Shown here piece by piece: positions 8,893 through 32,000 of a stretch of 32,000 bases of DNA. The stretch's first letter is position 1; each line of letters opens with the position of its first letter. The notes under the pieces are model-generated. The model did not search any database, was not told where the DNA came from, and saw only the letters and a program-made list of their open reading frames with translations. Source of the DNA: an uncultured Chloroflexia bacterium (lineage in GTDB: Bacteria > Chloroflexota > Ktedonobacteria > Ktedonobacterales > JADMIN01); NCBI GenBank assembly GCA_963718915.1, contig CAVRAI010000001.1, forward strand, positions 240,001-272,000, given 5' to 3'. Position numbers and translations under genes: made by a program.

Positions 8893-9444
8893 ATGTCTCT
8901 TCCGCAATCAGCGGATCCCACAGGCGCTCCAGCGTCTACAGGCGACAGGCTGCCCACGACTCCGGTTTTTCTTGTCGGTATTGGCCTGATTCTGCTGGGC
9001 AGCGCCATAGCGTTTGCCGCGCTCTTCTTCCAGTGGGGTCACGACTGTCCAGATCCCGCCACTGGTATCGCATGCTCCAGTTTGGGGACTAGCGACACGT
9101 CGCCGCTGGTCCCTTTGCCGCTGAGCAATCCCTATGCACTCCCGCAATATCTCCCGTTTGTGCTGTTCTCTCCTGTGCTGGGAGTCATCATAGTCGCGCT
9201 CTTGTTGGCGACGCGCAGCAGGCGATGGGATCCTCTGGCGCGCACCGCGCTTGCCTTTGGGGGGATTAGCGTCTTCTGCGGGTTCATTGGTACGCTGGTA
9301 ACGGCCTATGGCCTTGGGTTCACCGATTCCGCTGTCGTTCGTGTTCGTGTGCTGGATGAGGGCGCTATAGTCTCAGTCCTGTCCTATGCCGTGGTGCTGG
9401 TAGGAGTCATCTGCGCCTTCGTTGGCACGCCGCCACGCAAGTGA
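8893..9444 (+). CDS. hypothetical membrane protein (about 4 TM)
   Basis: 183-aa ORF with hydrophobic segments. RBS-like GAAAGG upstream. No family recognised. Confidence 0.5.
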   Translation: MSLPQSADPTGAPASTGDRLPTTPVFLVGIGLILLGSAIAFAALFFQWGHDCPDPATGIACSSLGTSDTSPLVPLPLSNPYALPQYLPFVLFSPVLGVIIVALLLATRSRRWDPLARTALAFGGISVFCGFIGTLVTAYGLGFTDSAVVRVRVLDEGAIVSVLSYAVVLVGVICAFVGTPPRK

Positions 9445-9474: not shown

Positions 9475-10423
9475 TCACAGCGCAATCTGGCAGCGTAGCA
9501 CGCCCGGCGAGCATTGCGCCGTCAGCACATCACCATCGAGTCGCCATGGTGCGTCGAGGGTCGCGTCGGCGTAGTAGCCGAGCGCGGCGCGTATGGTGAA
9601 GGTGGCATCCCCAGCCACGAAGCGGATTGGCTCGTTGCGCCCGCCGACGCCCGTGATGAAGCGATAGGCCCGCCGCGCCGACCACGCGGGCGTGATGGTG
9701 TAGTCGTCCTCGGTGGGCCACGACTGGTAGCTGGCGTGTGACGCATCCTGCGGCTGTGGCTGGATCGTTCCCGCAGCGAGCGCGGCCAGCGCCTCGGCCA
9801 GCAGTACGCCGCCGCGCCTGGCGCAGACAAGATCCAGCATCGCGGCGGTAATGCCATCGGATAGAGGTATCGTTTCACGAAGAACAATCGGGCCAGTATC
9901 GAATCCCTCATCCATCAGGTGAATGGTGACACCGCCGGTCTCGTCGCCATCGTGGAAGACCCAGAAGAGCGGGTCGGGTCCGCGATGCGCCGGGAGCAGC
10001 GACGGGTGAACGTTGAGACAGCCGAGCCGGGGCAGGCGCAGGAGCGATGCGGGCAATTTGCGCGAGAAGCAGGCGACGGTGATGGCGTCGAAGTCGAGTG
10101 CGGTCAAGGCGTCGGGCATGTCGGGGCCGCCCAGTTCCAGCACCGGGATCTCGCGCTCGGCGGCGACATCGAGGATGGTGCGCGGCGTGGTGTGGGCGAG
10201 GAGTGGCAGCGCGACGCCACGCGCCGCTCTCCGTTCGGGCGAGCAGCAGTGGCGGCTGGCCCGCACGCTCGCGCAGCGCGGGGAGCGCGACGGCCACCAC
10301 CTCGACGCCCGCCCGCAGCAACTCCTCCAGCACAAGTAGTGAGAAGACGCCGGTCATGCCGCAGAAGACGACGCGCACCGCCGCCGACGGAGCAGGGTCA
10401 CGCGCGTCATCCTGGGTATTCAT
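9475..10423 (-). pseudogene. formyltransferase (Fmt-like) gene split by a frameshift
   Basis: The N-terminal Rossmann part (VVFCGMTGVFSLLVLEELLRAGVEVVAV) is in ORF 9908-10423. The remainder (NVHPSLLPAHRGPDPLFW motif and C-terminal domain) is in ORF 9475-10335, in another frame. The frames switch at about 10200-10240. Confidence 0.75.
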
Positions 10424-10444
10424 GGCGAATATCCGACTTGTTGT

Positions 10445-12040
<1,596 letters not shown>

Positions 12041-12303
12041 TCACTGGGCCTGTATGTGTCCTGCATATGTTGGGCGCCTACCGCTCTCCTCAATCTCGTG
12101 TGTATTTGAGTAATCTTATCACGTACGATGATTTCGCGTCAACGCGCCCTTGATGCTTCTGGTTATCCTCAATATCCTCAACTAAACTTCAACGAGCATC
12201 CGGCCACTCGCCTTGTTATGTCAGATGCTGTATGATGGTCAGCGCGTACTAGCGCGTCATCTTATCCTGGCGATATGCCAAACCGACATCTATCAAGAGT
12301 AAA

Positions 12304-13479
12304 GTGAGCGCCATCATGGATTCTCCTGCCTCCAGTCTCGTCCCCGAAAAGACCGTCAACGCCTTTCTCGAAGACCTGCGTGCCCTGGTCAACATCAACT
12401 CAGGCACCTATACCCCCGATGGCGTCGCGCAGGTCGCGGCGTACATGCGGGCGCTCTTCGAGGCGACCGGCTGCGCGGTGGAGTTGATTTCTGGCGAGAG
12501 GATGGGGCCGCAACTTATCGCCCGCCGTACTGGGACAGGCCAGGGACATGTCCTCATCATCGGCCACATGGATACCGTCTTCCCCGATGGCGAGGCGGAT
12601 CGCCGCCCATTCGATATCCACGATGGCTGCGCCTATGGGCCGGGAGTCTTCGATATGAAGAGCGGCCTGCTGGTGGCGGCGTACGCCATTTGCGGGCTGG
12701 TCGAGCGGGACGAGGCGCCGTGGGAGACGCTAACGATGATCTGCAACAGCGACGAGGAGATTGGCTCGCCCGAAAGCCATGCGCTGATCGAGGCCGAGGC
12801 GCGAAAGGCCGATCTCGCGCTGGTGCTGGAGCCGACCTCAGACGTGGCCCGCGTGACCATCGCCCGCAAGGGCGCGGCTACCTATACGCTCGAAATTCAC
12901 GGCGTCGCTGCGCATGCGGGCGTCGAGCCGCAGCGCGGGCGGAGCGCGATTCTGGAGATGGCGCATCGCATCGTGGCGCTCCATGGGCTCAACGGCACCA
13001 TTCCCGGCGTGACGGTCAACGTTGGCGTGGTGCAGGGGGGCGAGCGGCCCAACGTCGTCGCCGAGGCTGCCTATGCCGAGATCGATGTGCGCGCCGCCGA
13101 TGAGGAGGGCGTAGAGGCCATCGAGGCGGCGCTGGCGAAGGTAGTGGCCGATACGAATGTGCCCGATACCACTGCCATGCTGGAGGGTTTCTTCGCGCAC
13201 CGCCCATTCACGCAGAGTCCATCGAGCGCGCGGCTCTTCGCGTTGGCCGCCGAGGCCGCCGCCGAACTGGGCATCACGCTGCGGGGCGAGCCGACGGGCG
13301 GCGCGTCGGATGGCAACACCACTGCCGGGCTGGGCATCCCGACGCTAGACGGGCTGGGGCTGGTCGGCGGCCTGGCGCACAATCCCGGCGAATACGTCGA
13401 GATCGACTCAATTGCGCCGCGTATCGCCCTGCTGATGGGCATCCTCAGGCGGCTCAACGGCGCGGATTTCTCGGCGTAG
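12304..13479 (+). CDS. M20 family metallopeptidase (carboxypeptidase G2-like)
   Basis: Motifs IIGHMDTVFP, GPGVFDMKSG and NSDEEIGSPES, plus a dimerisation-domain region. Start uncertain (GTG 12304 or ATG 12316). Confidence 0.85.
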   Translation: MSAIMDSPASSLVPEKTVNAFLEDLRALVNINSGTYTPDGVAQVAAYMRALFEATGCAVELISGERMGPQLIARRTGTGQGHVLIIGHMDTVFPDGEADRRPFDIHDGCAYGPGVFDMKSGLLVAAYAICGLVERDEAPWETLTMICNSDEEIGSPESHALIEAEARKADLALVLEPTSDVARVTIARKGAATYTLEIHGVAAHAGVEPQRGRSAILEMAHRIVALHGLNGTIPGVTVNVGVVQGGERPNVVAEAAYAEIDVRAADEEGVEAIEAALAKVVADTNVPDTTAMLEGFFAHRPFTQSPSSARLFALAAEAAAELGITLRGEPTGGASDGNTTAGLGIPTLDGLGLVGGLAHNPGEYVEIDSIAPRIALLMGILRRLNGADFSA

Positions 13480-13840: not shown

Positions 13841-15283
13841 ATGAGCCAGAGCAGCCTAGCAGTTCCCAGCGCCAGCAGCCCTTATAAAATCTTCCTCTCC
13901 TATCGCCGCTCGGATAGCCAGGCGACAGTGGATCACATCTTCGAGTGGCTGGTGCGCGCCTTTGGCCGCGAGGTGATCTTTAAGGATGTGGACACGATCC
14001 CGCGCGGCTACGAGTTCGCCCCCTATATCACCCATGTCCTCAGCCAGTGTCGCGTGGCGCTGCTGGCGCTTGGCCCCTCCTGGCCCACCGTCCTCGCGAC
14101 CGAAGGCGCCTACTCCGGGCGGCCCCGGCTGGACGACCCGGAGGATCATGTGCGGATTGAGACGGAGCAGGCGCTGGCCCTGGCTCCGGTGAATGCGACG
14201 GGCGCGCCTGCCAGCGCGTTACTGCTGATCCCCGTGCTGGTGCAGGGCGCGCAGATGCCACATCCAGGGGACCTGCCCGCGAGCCTGCAGCCGTTGTGCA
14301 GGCGCAATGCCACGCCCGTGCGCTATGACCCGGATTTCACCCGCGATATGCAGCGACTTATCAGCGATTGCGCCCACTGGATGGGCGTCCCCGTCCCCGA
14401 CCTGCTTGGCGCCAACCATACTCCAGCGTCGCTGCGTCCACCAGACGAGGTGGATGCGTTTCTGGCGGTCGCGACGCCTCAAATTCGCGACGCCTTCAGC
14501 GCGCAGAACTGGGCGCAGGTCATCCGGCAGGCGAAGGCGCTTCCTTTGCAGGTTCCTGCCGAGCGTGTACCTACTGAGGTGTATCAGATGTGGGGGCGGG
14601 CGCTCATGGCGATGCGTGACTATGGGGGCGCGAAGACCGCCTGGGACACCGTACGGCAGCGGGAGCCGCGCGATGTGGCGGCGTTGCGGGCGGCGGCGGA
14701 GGCACGAGTGGAGTTGAACGAGCAGGCCGAGGCGCTCACGCTGCTGGATGGCGCGTTGCTGCTCACACAGGGGGACGCTCAGCAGCAGGTGGCGTTGCTG
14801 GCGATATATGCCCACATCCTGCGCGAACTGGCCCAGAGCGAGCGTGGGGCCGCCGCCCAGGCGCACTGGGCGAACCTGCTGCGGGTGGTCAATGAAAGGC
14901 AATCGTTGGCGGGGACGCAGGACACTACCTGGCTGATAATGAAACTGGAAGCGCTTCGGGGATCGGGGCGTGATGTAGAGGCGCTGGAGGTGTTGGAGGA
15001 GGCGCGTGCGCTGACCGCCCGCGCGTCAGCCACCGCCGCGCAGTGGCTGACGCGCGCCCGGCTGGCCTGGACGCTGGCGGGCGAGGCTCCTAATGTTGAG
15101 GTGCGTGTCGCAATCGGCAACGCATCGCGTCTGGCTCCGGCTGATGGGGCGATTGCCTTGGAGCGTCAGCTCCTGCTGAAAGAAACCCTAACACCGCCAA
15201 TATCAGTTCGCTCGGATGGCTCAGCTGAAATTGCTATGCGCGATATGGCCATTGTCGGATTTGGGACTCTAGTACTTAAGTAA
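13841..15283 (+). CDS. TIR domain - TPR repeat protein, 3' end truncated and replaced by an IS insertion
   Basis: N-terminal YKIFLSYRRSDS...VRIETEQAL...LIPVLVQGAQMP resembles a bacterial TIR_2 domain. The C-terminal half is helical and TPR-like. The last 3 codons and the TAA stop (15272-15283) lie inside IS sequence. Confidence 0.85.
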   Translation: MSQSSLAVPSASSPYKIFLSYRRSDSQATVDHIFEWLVRAFGREVIFKDVDTIPRGYEFAPYITHVLSQCRVALLALGPSWPTVLATEGAYSGRPRLDDPEDHVRIETEQALALAPVNATGAPASALLLIPVLVQGAQMPHPGDLPASLQPLCRRNATPVRYDPDFTRDMQRLISDCAHWMGVPVPDLLGANHTPASLRPPDEVDAFLAVATPQIRDAFSAQNWAQVIRQAKALPLQVPAERVPTEVYQMWGRALMAMRDYGGAKTAWDTVRQREPRDVAALRAAAEARVELNEQAEALTLLDGALLLTQGDAQQQVALLAIYAHILRELAQSERGAAAQAHWANLLRVVNERQSLAGTQDTTWLIMKLEALRGSGRDVEALEVLEEARALTARASATAAQWLTRARLAWTLAGEAPNVEVRVAIGNASRLAPADGAIALERQLLLKETLTPPISVRSDGSAEIAMRDMAIVGFGTLVLK

Positions 15284-16220
15284 CTATCTCAAAAGGGACA
15301 AGCGATGGAGGCGGCGAAACCACAGCAGCGCGCAGGCCAGTTGGAGCAGCCCCCGAAAATTGGCGGCGTACTTGTCGTAGCGGATGAGCAGCGCGCGGCA
15401 CTTCGAGAGCCAGGCCAGCGTGCGCTCCACGACCCAGCGACGTGCCGGGAACCGCTTCTCACCCGTGGCCAGATCGAGCTTCTCCTTGCCGATGCGGCGC
15501 AGGTGCGGGATGTAGTGGTGGCTTGCCACCGCCGCGGCGCCGGTCGGATTGTCATAGCCCAGATCCAAACACAGATGCTGTGGCCGCTCCCGGGTCGGAT
15601 GAGGCCGCGCCACCACAACTGCCTCCAGCGTCGCCGCGAGCAGCTTGGTATCATGGACATTGGCACCAGCGATCACGACCGCCAGTGGGCCGCCAGCCGC
15701 CTCGACCAGCAGGCTGCGCTTCACTCCGCGTTTGCCGCGATCGGTGGGATTGCGGCCAATGAGGTCCCCCCCAGCCGGGCCTTGCCCAGCATGGCATCTG
15801 CCGCTTGCCACTCCCAGTCCACCCCACCCAACTCGGCACAGTGGTCCACCAGCGTGGCCCAGATGCACTCGAAAAAGCCCAGACGCACCCAGCGCTGGAA
15901 GGTGCGATGGACTGAGCTATCATCAGGGAACCGCTCCGGCAACTGGTTCCACTGGCAGCCGCTGCGCAGCCGAAAGATGAGTGCATCCAGCGTCCGCCGC
16001 GCATCCACGCGTGGCCGGCCCGTCGCCTGCGGCGGATCAAGCCTCGCCAGGATTGGGGCAATCACATCCCATAACTCATCGGAGACGGTCCAGATCGTCG
16101 CCATGGCGTTCCAATCGGGCCGGACCTTGCGTGGTCGCCCCATCCCTCACCTCCTGCCTGATCATCACTCCCTTCCACAGCACAGTCTACCGCACCTGAC
16201 AGCGTTCTGAGATAGTTACT
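15279..16220 (-). mobile_element. IS5-family (IS427/IS1031-like) insertion sequence nested in the IS630 left IR
   Basis: 942 bp. The IRs are AGTAACTATCTCA(A/G)AA at both ends. Flanking TA at 15277-15278 and 16221-16222. Carries an orfA/orfB transposase. Confidence 0.85.
15284..16143 (-). CDS. IS5-family transposase, orfA (15721-16143) and orfB (15284-15868) joined by a -1 frameshift
   Basis: orfA has ..GRPRVDARRTLDALIFRLRSGCQWNQLP... orfB has GRNPTDRGKRGVKRSLLVEAAGGPLAV..ANVHD. The frames overlap at a G7 run (C7 on the plus strand, 15766-15772). A -1 shift gives the canonical ..GKARLGGDLIGRNPTDRGK. Confidence 0.85.
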
Positions 16221-16277
16221 TAGTCCACATTGATTTGGGAGAAGGTGGTAGAATGCAGCACCAGAAAGGAGCCTCGT

Positions 16278-17416
16278 ATGCCCACCTCTACCCACCCCCT
16301 GACGTTGTCCGCCGCTGAACGCGCCCAGGCCCAGACCGTCATCCAGCGCGGACATACCGCTGCGCGAATCCAGCGGCGCGCCCATGTGCTCTTGAAATTG
16401 GCCGACGGCTGGAGCGCCGCCGCGATTAGCCAGGCGCTCGATGTCAGCCAGAATACGGTCTGGCGCGTGCGCCAACGCTTTGCCGCAGAGGGTGTCGCGG
16501 CGGTGCTCGCCGACCGGCGGCAGACGCGGCTCCGGGCCGCCTTGACCGGCGAGCAGCAAGCCCACCTCATTGCCGTCGCGTGCAGCGATGCGCCCGCTGG
16601 CCACGACCACTGGACGCTGCGCCTCTTGGCGGGCAAAGCGATCGAACTCGGCTTTGTGGAACGCATCTCGCCCGAAACCATCCGCGCCTTGCTCAAAAAA
16701 ACGCGCTGAAGCCCTGGCAGCACAAAGCCTGGTGTATTCCCACCGTGAGCGCCGCCTTTGTCGCGGCGATGGAGGATGTGCTCGCGCTTTACGCCCACGT
16801 CTATGCCGCTCCGCCCGATCCCCTGCGCCCCCTCGTCTGCCTCGATGAGAAGCCCGTCGTCTTGCACGGGCAGCCGCGGATGGGACTGCCGCCCGCTCCC
16901 GGCCGCGTGGAGCGCCGGGACTACGAATATATTCGGCAGGGAACGGCCAACCTCTTTGTGCTGGTCGCTCCGCATGCGGGCTGGCGTCACGTACGCGTCA
17001 CCGCGCGGCGTACCGCGCTGGACTATGCCCGCTGCTTGCGGTGGCTGGTCGAGGAAGCCTTCCCTCTGGCCGAGCGGATCGCGCTCGTGCAGGATAACCT
17101 CAACACCCATACCCTGGCCGCGCTCTATGCGGCGTTCCCGCCTGCGCAGGCGCGCGCTATCGCCAGCCGCTTGGAGGTGCACTATACGCCAAAACATGGC
17201 AGTTGGCTCAATATGGCCGAGATCGAGATCAGCGTCATCGAGCGCGGCTGCCTCGCGCGTCCAGTCCCCGATAACGACACGCTGGTTCAGCGCGTCACCG
17301 CCCTGGAGGCCGAGCGCAACGCAACTCACGCCCGCATCCGCTGGCAATTCACCCCCGATGATGCTCGTACCAAGCTGCATGCGCTCTATCCTAACCCTCA
17401 AATCAAACTGGACTGA
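16278..17416 (+). CDS. IS630-family transposase, orfA (16278-16709) and orfB (to 17416) joined by a -1 frameshift
   Basis: HTH N-terminus and a DDE region (DEKPV...VQDNLNTHT...YTPKHGSWLNMAEIE). The slippery A7 run at 16695-16701 gives ..ALLKKNALKPWQHKAWCIP. RBS GAAAGGAG precedes ATG 16278. Confidence 0.88.
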
Positions 17417-17526
17417 GTACTAGGAAGCACATTCGGTCTCGGGGTATGCCGAGACGTTGCCCGATTGTTTGGCGATTTATTTTGGCTGGCGGGATTATAC
17501 ACGTCGAACACCAAAATTTCCTCCGG

Positions 17527-18486
17527 ATGAAAACGCAACTACTTATGTCGAGATGTTCAGCAAATTTATTGAGTGTTGCCCCCAACGAAGAGCCCATGAT
17601 CGCAGCTACTCATCTTGTATCGCTCCTCGAAAGTTTCTATATCTCTACGCGGCGAAACACTGTAAAACCGCTGTTATGGGTAGTTGAGGGTCGAGATCTT
17701 ACTATTTGCCTTCCGGCGCTCAAGACATTGGGGAGGAAGCGCGACTTTGATGACATCCGTTTGGTCATCGTCTGGATTGTGCCTGATTCTATTGATCAGG
17801 CTTTGAAGGATAGCGCAGCTGAACTGCTAGCATGGTCGCAGCAGGTTGACACCATCCTGGCGACTACGCTGGTAATTCAGCATAACAGTCGGCTTGCCGA
17901 AACAATGAGGCGCAGCCAGTTCAACATCCTCTATAGGAGCATCGCCGCGCTCCTGGGCGGTGGCATGGTCAATCCTGAAGCCAACTTCGCCACTTTGACG
18001 ATTCAACTCCACAATGCCGGATACCCGTTCGTCGCTCTTGCGGCTGGCGCAATTGGTGTGAATGCATCTCACAGTAATTTCACTAACGGCTTGATCGTTG
18101 GCAATAGAGGAGATATCAACCCGATTGATGCCTCATTTAAGGTCAATCAATTGGCTTCTATGGCGCTCCGGAAAGAAAGTGAGTTGTCAACCGTCACCGA
18201 ATCGCTATCAGCGGTTCCTTTCGTCAACCTGGTCGTACCCACGCGCCTTCAGATGACAAGGGAGTTTCAGAGCGAGGTTTCCCACCGGCTCCGATTTGAA
18301 TATGGTGTGCCATCAGAGAATGTCATCGTCACGCCCTTGACCGATCCGAGAGATCGCGGAATCGATATCAGCAGGCAAAATAGATGGTTCAAGGGAGACT
18401 TCTATATCCACTTTACGGCTCTACGTGGTATTGGTACCGGGCATGGGGAGATACCCAAAGATTTGCAAGGTGAGGTATCCCTATAA
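17527..18486 (+). CDS. hypothetical protein in a low-GC island (possible degenerate FtsZ/tubulin-like fold)
   Basis: Long ORF (track 17446-18486) in a region of visibly lower GC. Start uncertain: ATG at 17446, 17527, 17545 or 17596. 17527 is preferred because of the ATGA overlap with the reconstructed upstream stop. No family confidently recognised. Confidence 0.6.
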   Translation: MKTQLLMSRCSANLLSVAPNEEPMIAATHLVSLLESFYISTRRNTVKPLLWVVEGRDLTICLPALKTLGRKRDFDDIRLVIVWIVPDSIDQALKDSAAELLAWSQQVDTILATTLVIQHNSRLAETMRRSQFNILYRSIAALLGGGMVNPEANFATLTIQLHNAGYPFVALAAGAIGVNASHSNFTNGLIVGNRGDINPIDASFKVNQLASMALRKESELSTVTESLSAVPFVNLVVPTRLQMTREFQSEVSHRLRFEYGVPSENVIVTPLTDPRDRGIDISRQNRWFKGDFYIHFTALRGIGTGHGEIPKDLQGEVSL

Positions 18487-18936
18487 GGACAGGACGAGGC
18501 CGCTGAGCCAGACGGTGCATTGCTCGATGGTCAGGCAGCCGCAGCTCATCCCCTCACGCAGGAGGCTCTGCATCGCGTGGATACGCGCCAGTTGCGCCTC
18601 CAACTCGTTGAGCTTGCGCTGAACCAGCGCCTCCCACCGCACCGACGGCGGCGTGCCAGCCTCGAAGCCGAAGAACAACTCGCGAATCTCGCCAAGGGTA
18701 AATCCCGCCTGCCGCGCGTGCGCGATCACCCGAAGCCGCTGAACCGTGCTGGTGTCATAGCGCCGCCGTCCGTTGAGTCGCGCGGGCATAGGCAAGAGGC
18801 CAATATCCTCGTAGTAGCGGATCACTGAGGTGGCGATTCCTGCTCGACGCGCGACCACGCCTATCGCCAGGCCAACCTCACTGCTCGAATGTGCCGCGTC
18901 GATTGGGTCGCATCCATCGTCGTCGTTCGCCGCCAT
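18481..18936 (-). CDS. MerR-family transcriptional regulator, SoxR-like
   Basis: HTH region LAIGVVARRAGIATSVIRYYEDIGLLP..NGRRRYD. C-terminal SCGCLTIEQC resembles the SoxR CxxCxCx5C cluster motif but lacks the first Cys. RBS GGAGAAA. Confidence 0.85.
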   Translation of the reverse strand: MAANDDDGCDPIDAAHSSSEVGLAIGVVARRAGIATSVIRYYEDIGLLPMPARLNGRRRYDTSTVQRLRVIAHARQAGFTLGEIRELFFGFEAGTPPSVRWEALVQRKLNELEAQLARIHAMQSLLREGMSCGCLTIEQCTVWLSGLVLSL

Positions 18937-18988
18937 CGCCTGTTTTCTCCACGATCCATCAAATTTCGCAATTTGGGCTGCTCATCCC

Positions 18989-19020
18989 TTGACTTCAAGC
19001 GCACTTGAAGAGTGTACGCT
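18989..19020 (+). promoter_or_regulatory. MerR-type promoter with overlong spacer and a SoxR-box-like dyad
   Basis: TTGACT (18989-18994), 20-nt spacer, TACGCT (19015-19020). The perfect inverted repeat CTTCAAG-cgca-CTTGAAG (18993-19010) is centred in the spacer. Confidence 0.6.
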
Positions 19021-26704: not shown

Positions 26705-27436
26705 TCAATAGACGAGGTGCAGGTAGAAGCCGACGATGAAGCGGGCCACAAACGCTGTAATCGCAAACCAGCCCAGCAGGATCAGCGCCGACACCACCAG
26801 ACTGACGCGCGTGCGCCAGCGGTGAATCGCCTGTCCATTCCCCAAACGCACGGCGACGCCGCTCAGGATGAAGCTCCCCATCGCGCTAGCCGCCGTGACC
26901 GCCGCGAGCGCCTGAATGATGATCGGAGACCTTTCGAAGACGATATTGATCAGTTGGGAGATGGCTGGGGGCAGGCGCATGCGGAACGATCCAACCGCCG
27001 GGAGCGAACTCAGGCCGAAGATCAAGATAATAGCAAACCCAACCAGACTCACGACCAGACAGATGGCGGCCCATTTTTCCAGCCGCGCCAGCGCCGCCAC
27101 ATTGTCCGAGGAGCGCCGCGCCCGGCGTCCCAGAAGGATGGCCACCACCGCCAGTGCTAGAATCGCCAGGAAGCTGACGATCACGATCACCGAGATGCGC
27201 GCCAGGGCCGCCTGCTGAAATGGCGTGACATCGCCGCGATAGGCGGGGAAGCTGCTCAGTTCAGCAGGGCGCAGCGCCGACGCGGTGAGTTCCATGACCA
27301 GCAGCCAGACCGCCGACGCAACGAAAGCAACACTGCCACAGGTGGCGCTGATCGCGGTCAGCCATCGCCCACGCCCCTGCGCCCGCGAACCATTGTTCGC
27401 TGGATAGGGAGTCTGGCCAGACGGTGAAAGCGTCAC
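26705..27436 (-). CDS. hypothetical polytopic membrane protein
   Basis: 243 aa with 5-6 hydrophobic segments. GTG start is preceded by GGAGGG. Divergent from the 27747 operon. Confidence 0.55.
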   Translation of the reverse strand: MTLSPSGQTPYPANNGSRAQGRGRWLTAISATCGSVAFVASAVWLLVMELTASALRPAELSSFPAYRGDVTPFQQAALARISVIVIVSFLAILALAVVAILLGRRARRSSDNVAALARLEKWAAICLVVSLVGFAIILIFGLSSLPAVGSFRMRLPPAISQLINIVFERSPIIIQALAAVTAASAMGSFILSGVAVRLGNGQAIHRWRTRVSLVVSALILLGWFAITAFVARFIVGFYLHLVY

Positions 27437-27597: not shown

Positions 27598-27626
27598 TTG
27601 TGCCGAATGGCGCGCCATGTTATACT
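27598..27626 (+). promoter_or_regulatory. candidate promoter for the 27747-30828 operon
   Basis: TTGTGC, 17-nt spacer, TATACT. It lies about 120 nt upstream of GTG 27747. Confidence 0.3.
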
Positions 27627-27746
27627 CCCTCCGTGCGCCTCCGCCAGTCTGGGCATGGATTTCGGGCCGCGCTATGGATGCTTTTTCGCGGATGATCGTG
27701 GGGCGCCGACGCTATTTGCCGCTCGGCATAAGGGAGGCCACGGCCT

Positions 27747-29852
27747 GTGTCGCTTACATTACTTTTCGGCTTGATGACGTTGGCGCCGGCCGTCGTCGCG
27801 ATTCTTCTCGTCATCCTTTCGCGTGTCACCACATTCCGCCTGCCGTCGCCGGTCGCATTCGCCCTGGCGGGGCTGGCAGCGGCCGCGCCAATTGTCGGGC
27901 TGATTCTGCTCAGTTCCGATCTCACCTTCCCCACGCCGCTTCGCTTCGCCTTCGCGGGCAATAGCGCCACGCCGTTCGCGCCGGTCTTCCGCGCGGATGG
28001 CTTTTCCTTCTACAGCGCCTGGGGCATCGCGGTGCTGATCGTGCCGCTGTTGCTCTGGCTGGTCTGGATGGACGCGGGCCGGGCAGCAAGCTCATCCGGT
28101 CGGCTGCTGGCCGAGCTGGGACTGGTGATCGGCCTCGAAGCGTGCGCGCTGCAACTGGTCTTCTCCGATAACCTGCTCTGGTTCGGCCTGGTCTGGCTCG
28201 CGTTGGTAGCGCTGACATGGTACCTGGGAGAACAGGGCGCCGAGAGCAGTAATCTCGATTATCGCGGCCTGATTGCGATGCTGATTGGGCCAGCGTTGAC
28301 AGTGCTGCTGCTACTGCTCATCGCGATCACCACCAAAGATCACACGTTCTACGGGCTGGCGGGCCATTCAGCCGCGTCGCCGTGGCAGATCGTCCTGCTG
28401 GCGGTAACACTCTCGCTGGCGGGCGGTGGCTATCCGTTCGTTGCGTGGGTGCGCCGGAGGGCCGCGTTTGCCACGCCGTCCGGGTTCGGCGCGCTCCTGG
28501 CGCTGGCGCTGCCGATGGTCGTCTTTGTCGGCGCGCGCTCATGGAGCGCCCTGCAAGCGACCACCAGCGGACTCTGGCCGCAGATTGGCGCGGTGACGCC
28601 GCCGATCACCGGAGGCATCGCGCTGGCGGTGCTCGGCTCGCTCTCGGTTGCCATTGCTGGTCTGCTGGCGCTTGGGCGCCGCGATGGGCGCACCCTGGTG
28701 GCGCTGCTCGCGACCGCGCAGGTCGGCTGGGGGCTGTTCGCCCTCGGCTCGTCACAGCCCGCCGCCGCTATCGGCGTGGTCATCTTGCTGGCGACCAGTG
28801 TGGTGGGTATCGGCGCGATGACGGCGGCGCTGGTTTCCGGCGGCATACTGACGGCGGATGATGAGCCTGACGGATCTGGCCCAGCGCCGTTTGGCCTGGC
28901 GTCACGCCCACTCAACCTTCTTGCCTGGTCTGTCGGCGCGGCTACCGCGCTGGGTGTCCCGTTCTTCGGCGGGTTCATCGCGCGCAACCAGATTACCGCC
29001 GGCACGCTTGCCGGGACGAAACTGGGCATCCCGCTCCTTGGCCTTGCCTGGCTGGGCGATGCGCTCTTTGCGCTGGCGCTGATCCGAGCGACGGTGCTGG
29101 CCTTCAAGGCCGACCCGGACGAACTGGCGGGCGATGAGACCGAAAAACCCGCGCGTTCCTCCGCGTCGGAGTTGCTGGAGCTGCCCGGAGCGGTGCTGGC
29201 GGTCATCGGGATCGCGCTTGGCATCTTCCCCCAGACATTCCTGAATATGGGCGCTCTCTTCGCGGTCGATCAGATAACGCCCGCAGGCGCCGCGAATGGC
29301 GTGCTGCGCGTCATATCGTTCGGCTACTCGACCGGGAATAGCCAGTGGCTCCCCGGCATCTTCTGGCTGGCGGCGGTGGTGCTGACAGGCGCCATTCTGC
29401 TCATCCGCCTGGGAACGCACCGCACCGCGGTGACGCTGGAGATCAGCGGCGAGGCAGAGTTGACCGGCATGGAACGCGACGCGCTGGACGAGCCTGCGGT
29501 CGTCTGGGTTGACCTCGCCTCCGCCTTTACCTCGTCCTGGACGCAGGTGGCGGGCAGTCAGCTCATCGGCGGTATCGATGAAGATGACGAATACATCGAG
29601 GCGCAACTGGACGACGACGACGAGGGCGACGATGACAGCGGCCCCGACGACACGACGCCTCCTGACGACGCCGATGACGGCGCCGCGACGCCCGAAAAAG
29701 GTGTGGCTCCGGCCAATGGCGTGACAGCAGAGGCAAACGTGGCCGACGAGACCGCCGAGGACACATCCGCCGAAGAGGCGCCCGTCAACGAACGCAAGGC
29801 GGCGAAGCAGGGCGCCCGTAAAGCCGGACAGCGCGGCCAGTCGCGGCAATAG
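27747..29852 (+). CDS. divergent complex-I antiporter-like subunit (NuoL/M/N - HycC/HyfB - MrpD superfamily) with an acidic disordered C-terminal tail
   Basis: Segments collinear with PF00361-type proteins. FRADGFSFYSAWGIAVLIVPLL matches the N-terminal motif. SDNLLWFGLVWLALVALTWYL matches the TM5 region. GGGYPFVAWVRRRAAFATPSGFGALLA corresponds to K..PFH.WLPDA..APTPVSALL. LLALGRRDGRTLVALLATAQVGWG corresponds to Al.Q.DlKRlLAYSSi.H.G. RBS AAGGGAGG. Confidence 0.6.
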   Translation: MSLTLLFGLMTLAPAVVAILLVILSRVTTFRLPSPVAFALAGLAAAAPIVGLILLSSDLTFPTPLRFAFAGNSATPFAPVFRADGFSFYSAWGIAVLIVPLLLWLVWMDAGRAASSSGRLLAELGLVIGLEACALQLVFSDNLLWFGLVWLALVALTWYLGEQGAESSNLDYRGLIAMLIGPALTVLLLLLIAITTKDHTFYGLAGHSAASPWQIVLLAVTLSLAGGGYPFVAWVRRRAAFATPSGFGALLALALPMVVFVGARSWSALQATTSGLWPQIGAVTPPITGGIALAVLGSLSVAIAGLLALGRRDGRTLVALLATAQVGWGLFALGSSQPAAAIGVVILLATSVVGIGAMTAALVSGGILTADDEPDGSGPAPFGLASRPLNLLAWSVGAATALGVPFFGGFIARNQITAGTLAGTKLGIPLLGLAWLGDALFALALIRATVLAFKADPDELAGDETEKPARSSASELLELPGAVLAVIGIALGIFPQTFLNMGALFAVDQITPAGAANGVLRVISFGYSTGNSQWLPGIFWLAAVVLTGAILLIRLGTHRTAVTLEISGEAELTGMERDALDEPAVVWVDLASAFTSSWTQVAGSQLIGGIDEDDEYIEAQLDDDDEGDDDSGPDDTTPPDDADDGAATPEKGVAPANGVTAEANVADETAEDTSAEEAPVNERKAAKQGARKAGQRGQSRQ

Positions 29853-29877
29853 ACGACTCCCAGGAGGAAAGTAGCCC

Positions 29878-30828
29878 ATGAACGGGGTGTTGAGTTTTGC
29901 ACTGGCGGTGCTGATTTATCCGGGATTGCTGGTGGCGGTGGTCGCGGGTGTGGCGCTGCTCCTGGTACGGGCGGTCGCCAGCGGCGCGGCGGGTGGCGAG
30001 AAGGGCGATTTCATCGCCGACCTGCGCGAGTCCTGGCAGGGTGAGACGATTGCGCCAGACGGTGTGAGTGAGTCCGCGCTGACGCTCAGCAGCGTCGTCG
30101 CGATCCTCGCGCCCGCGCTGGCGCTCGTGATGCTGCCAGTGCCCGGCAATCCACTGGTGACGGCGATTGGCCTGAAGGGCGATCTGGTGGCGGAGGGCGC
30201 GCTGTTGCTGGGGCTGCCGCTGGCGCGATTGTTTGTCGGCTGGCTGACGCCGACCCCCCTCACGCGCATTGCCGCCGACCGAGGCGCGCGCTTGCTAGCC
30301 GGGGCGGCGCTCTCCCTGACGCTCTCACTCACCGCCATCGCCCAGCAGTTCGACACGCTGACGATTGCCAACGCGCCCATCAAAGCGCCCAGCGGTATCT
30401 TGATCGCCGCGCGCGTGTTGGCCGCGCTTGCCTTTATCTGTGTGCTGCCCGTGCTCACGCGCATCACCGCGATTCGCGAGCCGCGCGACGCCGAGGATAC
30501 AGCCCCCGACGAGTTGCTGGAGGTCACGGGGCGCGACCGCTTCTGCTTCCGGCTTGGCGAGGCGATTCAGCTTGCGGCGACCGCGGGCTTTTTCCTTGCA
30601 GTCTTCGTCATGCCCTTCTTCTCCGTGGCGCCACAGGGCGCGGCCATGGCGATCATCTGGATCGTCGGGCTGCTACTGACGGCGGCGGGCATTGGCGTGT
30701 GGGACGCGCTACGCCGACAGATGCCCGTGGGCAACGATCATCCACCGCTGACCTGGTGGCTGGGCTGGCCACTGCTGATCTCGTTGGCGGCGCTGGTCGT
30801 CACCGCCTGGGCCACGCGCGGGGTCTAG
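29878..30828 (+). CDS. divergent NuoH/HycD-like membrane subunit
   Basis: 316 aa, about 8 TM. GDFIADLRESWQGETIAPDG resembles the NuoH/HycD loop (..aD..Kl..KE...P). DELLEVTGRDRFCFRLGEAIQLAATAGFFLAVFVMPFF resembles E.EL.eG...EysG..F.....aEy......lf..P. RBS AGGAGG. Starts 25 nt after the upstream stop. Confidence 0.5.
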   Translation: MNGVLSFALAVLIYPGLLVAVVAGVALLLVRAVASGAAGGEKGDFIADLRESWQGETIAPDGVSESALTLSSVVAILAPALALVMLPVPGNPLVTAIGLKGDLVAEGALLLGLPLARLFVGWLTPTPLTRIAADRGARLLAGAALSLTLSLTAIAQQFDTLTIANAPIKAPSGILIAARVLAALAFICVLPVLTRITAIREPRDAEDTAPDELLEVTGRDRFCFRLGEAIQLAATAGFFLAVFVMPFFSVAPQGAAMAIIWIVGLLLTAAGIGVWDALRRQMPVGNDHPPLTWWLGWPLLISLAALVVTAWATRGV

Positions 30829-30886: not shown

Positions 30887-31196
30887 GTTGCATTCACGCT
30901 TGTGAACGATACGTCCCAACGGCATATTTGCAGGTTCTTGCCTCCTCTCATCCCCATGTGTTGATGTTCCCATACATACTTCTGGTATAGAATGCCTCAG
31001 CATAATGTATGCCTTGTGCGCGTAAACCCAACAATGTACACCTATTCTCTTTTGCTGACACGGATGATATAGTGACTTTGCATTGACCTGGTCAGCCAAT
31101 TTGTAAAGCAAGCGAAGCATAACCAAGCAAACCGGATAACACTTCCCGCGCGTTTCCTCGTACTGTTTTGCTGTTGAATGAGGATAAGGCTCGCGT

Positions 31197-31373
31197 ATGA
31201 ATTGCCCACAATGTCAAGACTGCTCGTTGTGTGGCCATCGACAGACGCTCTCCCTCGACAACCGCGTCAACCGCACCTACACCTGTCTCTGTTGTGGCAT
31301 CGTCGTAGACCGCGACTGCAACGCGAGCCGGAACATATTAAGACTGGGACGACAGTCTCTGGCGTCGGCCTAA
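31197..31373 (+). pseudogene. tnpB: C-terminal zinc-ribbon remnant of an IS200/IS605-family TnpB (OrfB)
   Basis: The 58-codon ORF MNCPQCQDCSLCGHRQTLSLDNRVNRTYTCLCCGIVVDRDCNASRNILRLG matches the TnpB C-terminal pattern C..CG....l..R...C..CG...DRD.NA..NI. Stops lie immediately upstream, and no RuvC or WED region was found. Confidence 0.7.
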
Positions 31374-31610
31374 CCGAGCTTAGAAACTGTTATGCACTCA
31401 AGGTCGAACGGCCCAGGAAGCCTAGAATACGAGACTGGAAGAGCGGCAGAACGCCAGGAGAGGTGCAAAACCACACAACTGAGCGATGATACGAGCGGCT
31501 TTAGCCTCATCGCGTGTCCAATTCTACAGCGTTCTACGATAGTCACCGTCAAGTCTTTAACAGGCTCTAGGCTAAAACCACCTGAGACGCCAATAGACGA
31601 GGGAGCGGAG

Positions 31611-32000
31611 ATGATGCATACGGATAGATTGCGTTGGCGGCTGTCAGGTATTCTGTCTTCGGCGCTGCTCATCTCCGCCCTGTGTGTGGGCGGCTGTACC
31701 CCGGCGCTGCACGGCGCGTCCAGCACGACATCGGCGCAACTGGGCAACGGCGTGTTGGCATGGCCCTTCGATACCCATTCTGGCGCGTGGGTGATTGAGA
31801 ATGGCTACAACTGGAACGCCAGCAACGGTGGTCTCGATCATGGCTGTTCATCTTATGGGCAAACCTGCTACGAACAAGATTCCTTCGACTTCCAGATCAG
31901 TGGCCCTCAAGGCAGCACAATTGGCGCGCAAGTGTTGAGTCCAGTCGCTGGGAGTCTGGTAGACTTCCAGAGCGCTGTTCCAGGTGATGGTAGTTCGGGT
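31611..32000 (+). CDS. putative secreted lipoprotein (3' partial; possibly M23-like)
   Basis: ATG is preceded by GGGAGCGGAG. Signal peptide with a lipobox-like LISALCVGGC. Open to the window end. The GLDHG...SPVAGSLV pattern is only weakly M23-like. Confidence 0.55.
   Translation, partial: MMHTDRLRWRLSGILSSALLISALCVGGCTPALHGASSTTSAQLGNGVLAWPFDTHSGAWVIENGYNWNASNGGLDHGCSSYGQTCYEQDSFDFQISGPQGSTIGAQVLSPVAGSLVDFQSAVPGDGSSG

Follow-up and report, generated by a model that had tools for sequence, protein, structure and literature searches.

A free-standing NuoL-like/NuoH-like gene pair of Ktedonobacterales descended from a four-gene, hydrogenase-related operon

Introduction

How redox chemistry is coupled to ion movement in the membrane arm of complex I and the hydrogenases is debated, and natural minimal versions of these machines are rare. 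In the group 4 [NiFe]-hydrogenases, an antiporter-like and a NuoH-like subunit of the membrane arm are encoded by adjacent genes (EchA/EchB, HycC/HycD, MbhH/MbhM). DabAB/MpsAB is a precedent for a single antiporter-like protein acting outside complex I and Mrp: a PF00361 protein has one partner, the carbonic-anhydrase-like DabA, encoded by the adjacent gene. Here we describe a gene pair that encodes the same two folds as the hydrogenase membrane arm, an antiporter-like protein of the NuoL/HycC type (L) and a NuoH/HycD-type protein (H), on a 32,000-nucleotide (nt) stretch of DNA from an uncultured Chloroflexia bacterium (assembly GCA_963718915.1, contig CAVRAI010000001.1, positions 240,001 to 272,000). 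This whole stretch is called the window below.

Some relatives of the group 4 hydrogenases, the Ehr complexes, are without the residues that coordinate NiFe (PMC6349859). Their presence in Chloroflexi has been mentioned in general terms (bioRxiv 10.1101/2021.08.23.457424), and the Ehr cluster of Geobacter, GSU0739-45, consists of seven genes and includes several membrane subunits (PMC7894505). We find that the pair in the window keeps both membrane folds and the promoter of a four-gene operon, that it originated by loss in place of the two genes for redox subunits, that its channel residues are non-canonical, and that it is under ongoing selection. On balance, we favor the view that the pair is the retained membrane arm of a four-subunit, Ehr-like complex and works as a redox-independent module. 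That four-subunit complex has so far been seen only in Ktedonobacterales, of soil.

Results

The pair and its two folds

The two genes lie on the same strand, 25 nt apart, and each is preceded by a Shine-Dalgarno (SD) sequence (Table 1). This agrees with a first-pass annotation, made by reading the letters of the window, which had described two close genes with strong ribosome-binding sites (RBSs) for a 701-amino-acid (aa) antiporter-like protein and a 316-aa NuoH/HycD-like protein. As that annotation had also stated, the usual partners are missing nearby: tblastn and profile searches of the 32-kb window found no NuoB/D-like or any other complex-I-type gene, and the window holds no genes for small membrane subunits. 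Since no MrpB-, C-, E-, F- or G-type small subunit is encoded near the pair and the partner of L is NuoH-like, the pair does not belong to an Mrp-type system either.

For L, a Pfam scan gave no match to PF00361, and hence none above the curated threshold; more distant members of the family do match this domain. The antiporter-like assignment is nevertheless supported by a match to NCBIfam NDH_I_L (E = 2e-7; 30 bits, cut-off 407), by profile-profile alignment (hhalign) of aa 76-436 with NuoL/M/N/HycC at 95% probability, and by Foldseek matches of an AlphaFold2 (AF2) model (predicted TM-score, pTM, 0.81) to NuoL/M/N, ND4, MrpA/D, HycC and MBS chains (E ~1e-11, TM-score up to 0.79). Fifteen transmembrane (TM) helices are predicted. 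The model contains the 14-TM antiporter-like core, and in its AF2 secondary structure TM7 (aa 212-226/232-241) and TM12 (aa 388-402/412-422) are discontinuous, as in the canonical antiporter-like fold.

For H, profile, alignment and fold agree with the NuoH/HycD assignment. The protein passes the PF00146 gathering score marginally (27.8 bits against 27, E = 2e-6), and most of its relatives have precomputed PF00146 matches. Alignment with E. coli NuoH/HycD reaches 97.6% probability (hhalign). The AF2 model (predicted local distance difference test, pLDDT, 81; pTM 0.84) has the eight-TM fold with an amphipathic TM1-TM2 helix and matches NuoH, ND1, HycD and MbhM in Foldseek (E = 1e-7, TM-score 0.6-0.73).

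Four-gene relatives with redox subunits

We collected 94 relatives of L at 34-93% identity, from Ktedonobacterales wherever the source organism is named, and more than 120 relatives of H. We compared gene order at 19 loci from species-level genomes, at 17 from metagenomes and on several long contigs (with names such as L001 for loci and P0033 for a contig), and classified them by tblastn and extraction of open reading frames (ORFs). Most of these loci are a compact four-gene operon with the order D-L-B-H, often with 4-nt overlaps between genes; about 14 distinct loci of this kind were found. D is a NuoD/HycE-like protein of ~345-390 aa, and B is a NuoB/HycG-like protein of ~160-250 aa with an acidic tail. 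The bare L-H pair is present in the window and in L001/2, L006-L009, L025-L029 and L042, which make up the window clade, as well as in L020 and L005.

The redox subunits of the four-gene operons keep most of their expected cysteines. In the NuoB-like protein, the CxxC...C...GCPP pattern is kept in 18-19 of 19 sequences, and these cysteines are candidate ligands of a [4Fe-4S] cluster. Alignment of the NuoD-like protein with HycE reaches 99.8% probability (hhalign), and the protein ends exactly where the C terminus of mature HycE lies. Its NiFe cysteines C241, C531 and C534 are kept in 14/14 sequences, and HycE C244 is replaced by Ala in all 14. An outgroup of four-gene operons retains all four NiFe ligands (RxCGxC...DPCxxC): its large subunit has complete motifs, ERTCGTCGHSH and the C-terminal DLCIACIDR, and its best full-length match in the PDB is MbhL. 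As read from the sequences, these loci form a reduction series, from four NiFe cysteines to three cysteines plus Ala to the bare pair, which has no catalytic subunits. The first-pass annotation had held that finding orthologous pairs within ordinary nuo, hyf or mrp operons would speak against an orphan module. This applies in part: orthologues of the pair do sit with NuoD- and NuoB-type genes, in operons that are minimal and Ehr-like rather than ordinary.

The outgroup operons (L045, 6785-11840; L047, 2231-6979; and L048) encode no NuoI/HycF/EchF ferredoxin-type subunit. In their small subunit the fourth Cys (of GCPP) is replaced by Asn or Asp, and their antiporter-like subunit is without the canonical Lys/Glu residues. 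It is possible that these operons, judged by their motifs, encode the smallest membrane-bound hydrogenases known. To our knowledge, the four-gene relatives as a whole are the smallest hydrogenase-like complexes; Ech, with six subunits, is less simple.

In one metagenome-assembled genome (MAG), MFD02579.bin.2.12, two copies of the four-gene operon are present (L017 and L024, on contigs 13 and 12), which shows that one organism or bin can hold paralogues of the operon.

A profile search of 1.84 billion representative proteins gave a small, sharply bounded family, with ~60 clusters at E < 1e-30. A more distant tier (E = 1e-40 to 1e-60), the outgroup whose large subunit has complete NiFe motifs, is likewise encoded in D-L-B-H operons. 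Canonical antiporter-like proteins appeared in the same search only at E > 1e-11 and were matched over TM9-12 only.

Loss of D and B in place

A four-gene contig, P0033, shares a downstream HAD hydrolase, zf_Tbcl, Band_7/flotillin, SDR and LOG genes with the bare pair L005, and L005 in turn has an upstream aminotransferase, GatB, glutamate dehydrogenase (GDH) and S58 peptidase in common with L042 and the window. This shared synteny makes the four-gene and bare-pair loci orthologous. Directly 5′ of L, L005 carries a frame-shifted NuoD-like pseudogene that is recognizable as two colinear fragments (E ~2e-5). No D or B remnant was found by the same profile search in the window or its clade, with 10-kb flanks of ~10 bare-pair loci covered. 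Between L and H in L005, a possible NuoB remnant (12321-12467, corresponding to the CxxC part of the profile) scored E = 13, and we do not claim it.

A rooted neighbor-joining tree of L plus H recovered the window clade as monophyletic (100% bootstrap) with L005 as its sister (82%). In the same tree L020 was placed beside a four-gene locus, L036 (83%), and at no time within the window/L005 group, which implies that D and B were lost at least twice. The number of losses is likely three: neutral DNA in L005 would not have remained recognizable over the time since L005 and the window clade diverged.

Two further observations concern these operons. Inside the D pseudogene of L005 is an integrase-core scar (9225-9389). 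The L gene of L005 is itself split, into ORFs of 523 aa (10001-11572) and 231 aa (11635-12330), with the break exactly at the variable cytoplasmic loop that joins TM13 to TM14; a tolerated fission, a frameshift in the course of decay or an indel from long-read assembly may each explain the split.

Mobile genes have entered other members of the family. L014 and L019 have a gap between D and L; considered as sites of an extra subunit, the two gaps instead hold an IscB-like gene with PLMP and HNH motifs (L014, 8396-9757, + strand) and a TnpB-like gene (L019, 9008-9892, - strand). It may be through transposon activity that D and B were lost repeatedly.

The ancestral promoter and a new leader

Upstream of L is a promoter-like element (Table 1) whose hexamers are invariant in 16/16 aligned loci, across operons in which the proteins are only 35-40% identical. 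It lies 5′ of the NuoD-like gene in four-gene operons, 5′ of the pseudogene in L005 and 5′ of L in the bare pairs (for example, L003 8701-8730, L010 8646-8675, L005 9434-9463 and L020 4652-4681). Each of 28 loci has one copy, and the window has a single match even when two mismatches are allowed, so the element is specific to the operon rather than a generic consensus; it suggests a dedicated sigma factor or regulator. Since the ancestral promoter is retained, D must have been excised from between the promoter and L, and the pair is probably still part of the same regulon.

The ~200 nt 5′ of L are conserved far beyond the coding sequence, even where synonymous sites are near saturation. Within this region, members of the bare-pair clade share a noncoding leader that is near-identical even in L009 and L042, whose genes have diverged to synonymous distances (dS) of 0.8-1.0. 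It is present in the window, L001, L006-L009, L025, L027, L028 and L042 and is specific to this clade. The leader matches no Rfam family. A predicted hairpin overlaps the SD sequence and the start codon, but the sequence varies too little to back it by covariation (a compensatory change in only 2 of 44 pairs), and we claim no structure. Translation of the leader as a small ORF was ruled out by the 1-nt indels that it tolerates. We regard it as a candidate for a new cis-regulatory RNA, confined to the bare-pair clade.

Selection on the bare pair

Within the window clade, the ratio of nonsynonymous to synonymous substitution rates (dN/dS) is 0.14-0.27 for L and 0.09-0.28 for H, with dS up to ~1. 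Flanking housekeeping genes give 0.09-0.18, and the four-gene operons give 0.16-0.31 for L and mostly 0.07-0.11 for H. By these estimates, constraint on L is unchanged relative to the four-gene operons and constraint on H is mildly relaxed.

Could the pair be a nonfunctional remnant of operon decay? In favor of this, the pair has no catalytic partners left, scars of mobile elements lie around these operons, and the split L gene of L005 stands beside a D pseudogene. Decay is, however, largely refuted by the low dN/dS just described; both ORFs are intact across all window-clade members, at 66-93% protein identity, 87% of the deeply conserved positions are kept (see below), and both RBSs, the promoter and the leader are also conserved. 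We consider this explanation highly improbable.

A different possibility is that the pair still belongs to a four-subunit redox enzyme, with NuoD-like and NuoB-like proteins that dock on L-H but come from genes at another site of the genome, as in a split operon. In favor of this, among the columns that are at least 90% conserved in four-gene operons, the bare-pair clade keeps 99 of 114 in L and 68 of 78 in H (87%). Nor is there significant relaxation specific to the loops of H: in region-wise dN/dS, which was uninformative, the loops outpace the TM core whichever the architecture, with no clade-specific signal. Paralogues exist in the group, as the MAG with two four-gene copies attests, and our searches for D and B took in the window and flanks rather than whole genomes. 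Yet in L005 D decays in place instead of relocating, the window and the 10-kb flanks of the bare pairs give no D or B signal, and a genome scan found a single locus per bare-pair MAG. Moreover, the non-conservative changes in H (W29L, P42K, L43G, R55G, L221R and R288H) are all on the predicted cytoplasmic face, the side on which NuoB/D would dock, and dN/dS of H is somewhat above that of most four-gene operons. On this evidence, we judge subunits supplied in trans to be unlikely, and we return to the retained membrane arm as the reading that we prefer.

Non-canonical residues in the membrane subunits

Residues of L were equated with those of NuoL through the profile-profile alignment, and the reference numbering was checked on the E. 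coli sequences. In TM5, NuoL E144 corresponds to L151 of the window protein, within the motif VWLAL. In TM7, K229 corresponds to A225, preceding GGGYPFVAWVRRRA, and this position is Ala in 106 of 107 family sequences. H254 of TM8 is A252, and H334, H338 and K342 of TM11 are I346, T350 and G354. In TM12, K399 corresponds to R413 (Arg in 90/107 sequences). The QxDxKK block of NuoL aligns with GRRDGRT...ATAQ. The register of TM9-TM12 agrees in a separate HMMER alignment to ND5 structures, and three alignment methods give consistent replacements over the 107 sequences. L is thus without the charged chain of TM5 Glu, TM7 Lys, TM8 Lys/His and TM12 Lys/Glu. The first-pass annotation, which had read the TM5 Glu, the TM7 Lys and the Q.D.KR block by eye as replaced, was essentially right.

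That annotation had also presented the channel as inactivated in an orphan pair, and a link between the two is not supported. The four-gene operons carry the same fixed replacements of TM5 Glu, TM7 Lys, TM8 His/Lys and TM11 Lys, and the outgroup residues are replaced likewise (A/S; Ala in 8/8; Leu in 8/8; and Met, Ile or Phe at TM12). Because outgroup operons with all four NiFe cysteines share the channel replacements, these predate the orphaning. The alignments indicate that L is a long-standing non-canonical design rather than a product of decay, unlinked to the presence or absence of D and B.

The Ktedonobacterales L proteins have invariant charges of their own: E131 in TM4, E162 and D171 at the cytoplasmic ends of TM5/6, R236-R238 after the TM7 break, R264, R311-R312-D313-R315 in the TM9-10 loop, D371, E373, R413 at the TM12 break, R447 and R559. 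The outgroup has other residues at several of these positions.

It might be objected that L and H are ordinary subunits of complex I, formate hydrogenlyase or Mrp that have been displaced, and that the loss of residues is an alignment artefact. Automated labels of the relatives do read "formate hydrogenlyase subunit 3/4" and "NADH-quinone oxidoreductase subunit H." However, scores fall far under all curated equivalog cut-offs, as the NDH_I_L score illustrates, the family stands sharply apart from canonical antiporter-like proteins in the search of representative proteins, and the replacements persist whichever alignment method is used. We find this explanation exceedingly improbable; even taken jointly, decay and ordinary nuo/hyf subunits would be very unlikely to account for the pair.

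H was compared with E. coli NuoH and HycD at the 24 charged or polar positions that these two proteins have in common. The window protein is identical at 4 of the 24 (the equivalents of NuoH D63, D111, R148 and E228), and E220 is conservatively replaced by Asp. Only the D111, R148 and E228 equivalents (D102, R135 and E215) are conserved throughout the family. E157 is replaced by Ala, and most of the conserved residues of the TM1-2 loop are gone, including R37, R46, Q59, K66 and K70; H therefore keeps few of the E-channel and quinone-loop residues that NuoH and HycD share. A polar cluster formed by D102, D134/R135/R138 and E215/D220/R225/E228/Q231 is conserved.

The cytoplasmic C terminus of L

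After TM15, L continues into a conserved cytoplasmic segment (aa 575-625) that forms short helices in the AF2 model, and then into the acidic low-complexity tail with a basic tip to which the first-pass annotation had drawn attention and which is predicted to be disordered. The tail evolves fast (40-46% identity within the clade), and its acidic-then-basic pattern recurs across the family. The NuoB-like proteins of the relatives also end in long acidic low-complexity tails (for example, L003 12616-13272).

One possibility is that L-H has recruited a new, non-homologous soluble partner, bound to the Arg-rich cytoplasmic face, to the C-terminal segment or to the acidic tail. The segment is under selection (dN/dS 0.16-0.26), the cytoplasmic Arg clusters of L are invariant, a clade-specific divergent neighbor gene arose after the loss, and the new ultra-conserved leader suggests altered regulation. 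Nevertheless, no gene for a soluble protein is conserved with the pair across the clade, the flanks differing among the window, L001 and L042; the neighbor encodes a membrane protein and is missing from L042; and four-gene operons already have both the C-terminal segment and the Arg clusters. A new soluble partner therefore seems to us quite unlikely.

Neighboring genes

Coordinates of the features are collected in Table 1. The first-pass annotation had placed a divergent membrane protein upstream of the pair and a TnpB remnant and a lipoprotein downstream, and all three are there; the lipoprotein-like ORF lies, like the TnpB remnant, 3′ of the pair, in a stretch where the G+C content falls to 54%. 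The divergent 243-aa membrane protein has no Pfam match and evolves fast. It is kept 5′ of the pair in L001, L006-L009, L027 and L028, is duplicated in tandem in L001 (8293-9003 and 9070-9735), and is absent from L042, L005, L020 and every four-gene locus.

Other genes in the window encode IF-2, RimM, an ABC1/UbiB-type kinase, CtaA, an M20 peptidase, a TIR-TPR protein, an aminotransferase, GatB, GDH, a DinB-like protein and an S58 peptidase. The protein with a TIR domain and TPR repeats is encoded at 13841-15283 (+ strand), and a TIR_2 protein is found near the pair in L001 (1687-3369); these are possible defense or signaling genes and are not tied to the pair. G+C content is 0.54-0.56 at 17001-19000 and 31001-32000, compared with ~0.63-0.67 elsewhere in the window, and at 16220-18486 the ORFs match no Pfam family. 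This low-GC DNA may have been acquired horizontally.

Table 1. Features of the L-H locus, in window coordinates
Feature	Position	Strand	Remarks
243-aa membrane protein, divergent from the pair	26705..27436	-	Clade-specific neighbor; membership of the module not demonstrated
Promoter-like element: TTGTGC, 17-nt spacer, extended -10 (TGTTATACTC)	27598..27627	+	TTGTGC-N17-TG.TATACTC
Ultra-conserved noncoding leader, ~110 nt, including the SD sequence AAGGGAGG	27635..27746	+	Start approximate; transcription start inferred
SD sequence of L, AAGGGAGG	27730-27737	+	9 nt 5′ of start codon
L gene, 701-aa divergent antiporter-like (NuoL/HycC-type) membrane protein	27747..29852	+	GTG start; profile, fold, dN/dS
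Antiporter-like core of L, aa 76-436, aligned with NuoL 74-425	27972..29054	+	hhalign 95%
Conserved cytoplasmic C-terminal segment of L, aa 575-625, after TM15	29469..29621	+	Invariant W587; in both architectures
Acidic low-complexity tail and basic tip of L, aa 626-701	29622..29849	+	Predicted disordered; pLDDT < 50
SD sequence of H, AGGAGG	29863..29868	+	9 nt 5′ of start codon
H gene, 316-aa divergent NuoH/HycD-type membrane protein	29878..30828	+	Profile, fold, dN/dS
TnpB zinc-ribbon/RuvC remnant, 3′ of H	31188-31370		

Discussion

How might a pair of this kind have come about, and what could it do? The ancestral operon, related to those of the group 4 hydrogenases, encoded a NuoD-like protein, L, a NuoB-like protein and H. 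Long before any gene was lost, L gave up the canonical Glu/Lys proton chain; it retained the fold with its two broken helices and evolved invariant charges of its own. In the lineage of the window, both cytoplasmic redox subunits were then deleted in situ; the promoter of the ancestral operon has persisted, a leader became fixed and highly conserved, and purifying selection on both membrane genes has continued. The products would form a heterodimer in the manner of HycC-HycD or EchA-EchB, presumably with no redox input, and would most likely serve in passive or secondary conduction of ions or protons or play a structural part in the membrane. The polar cluster of H together with the buried E131 and R413 of L may constitute the functional core, and the C-terminal segment and acidic tail of L may offer an interaction surface. 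The first-pass annotation had proposed that a pseudo-antiporter and a NuoH-like protein had taken on a new, non-redox role; a genuine free-standing module is what we find, and the role itself is plausible.

Several points weigh against a redox-independent membrane arm. Only two buried charged residues are present in L, and a continuous path for ions is not evident. The enrichment of H changes on the cytoplasmic face is not significant (Fisher, odds ratio ~3, p = 0.12-0.13), and the H surface may still bind something. Finally, the searches for D and B covered 32 kb of this genome and the 10-kb flanks of its relatives; a word-indexed search for NuoD-like proteins gave 20 matches, none of them on bare-pair contigs, and is too insensitive to count as evidence of absence.

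The implications reach beyond this locus. The reduction series would be a natural one for the complex-I superfamily and, if true, would separate the role of the membrane arm from that of the redox arm. The retention of the antiporter-like fold and its broken helices without the Glu/Lys chain allows structural features to be distinguished from catalytic ones, and the redox subunits have been lost at least twice while the membrane pair is still selected behind the same promoter. Should the pair work alone, the NuoH/NuoL-type core has a function that is independent of electron transfer; should it not, the missing partners are a defined target for searches. It is conceivable, although we hold it at somewhat less than even, that the complex-I-type core can be an autonomous, selectable machine without a redox module, equipped with non-canonical buried charges, its own promoter and a leader RNA. 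Automated labels such as "formate hydrogenlyase subunit 3/4" or "NuoH" mislead metabolic reconstruction in Ktedonobacterales.

The first-pass annotation considered a free-standing pair to be undescribed, and the literature that we searched bears it out: it holds no account of a D-L-B-H four-gene operon, of an antiporter-like subunit without the whole Lys/Glu chain or of a free-standing NuoL-like/NuoH-like pair, a weak negative as subscription journals were little covered.

How, then, does the locus relate to the systems that are known? From DabAB/MpsAB it differs in its partner, which in Pfam scans matches PF00146 and not DabA (PF10070), and in L, which is without the canonical Lys/Glu residues that DabB keeps. 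With NuoL/M/N of complex I, L shares the fold, the discontinuous TM7 and TM12, ADN and PxxxW motifs, a QxDxK-type TM9-10 loop and GF..K/R in TM12; unlike NuoL, it is without the residues of the central hydrophilic axis (E144 to L, K229 to A, H254 to A, K342 to G). H retains counterparts of NuoH D111, R148 and E228 and has lost E157 and the quinone-site residues of the TM1-2 loop. No NuoA/J/K, N-module or Q-module genes accompany the pair, and there is no sign of a quinone site.

With the group 4 hydrogenases the pair shares both folds and the adjacency of the two genes, and relatives of the pair also encode large- and small-subunit-like proteins. Unlike these hydrogenases, the window itself encodes neither, co-encoding being seen in its relatives. 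Even the complete relatives consist of four genes only, with no NuoI/HycF/EchF ferredoxin subunit, NuoC-like domain or small membrane subunits, and the antiporter-like subunit is without the TM5 Glu, TM7 Lys, TM8 Lys/His and TM11 Lys. The four-gene relatives fit the definition of Ehr loosely: one NiFe ligand is lost (Ala in 14/14) and three Cys are invariant, and the operon is much smaller. The window locus, which has neither large nor small subunit, is thus a descendant of an Ehr-like operon rather than a member of that group.

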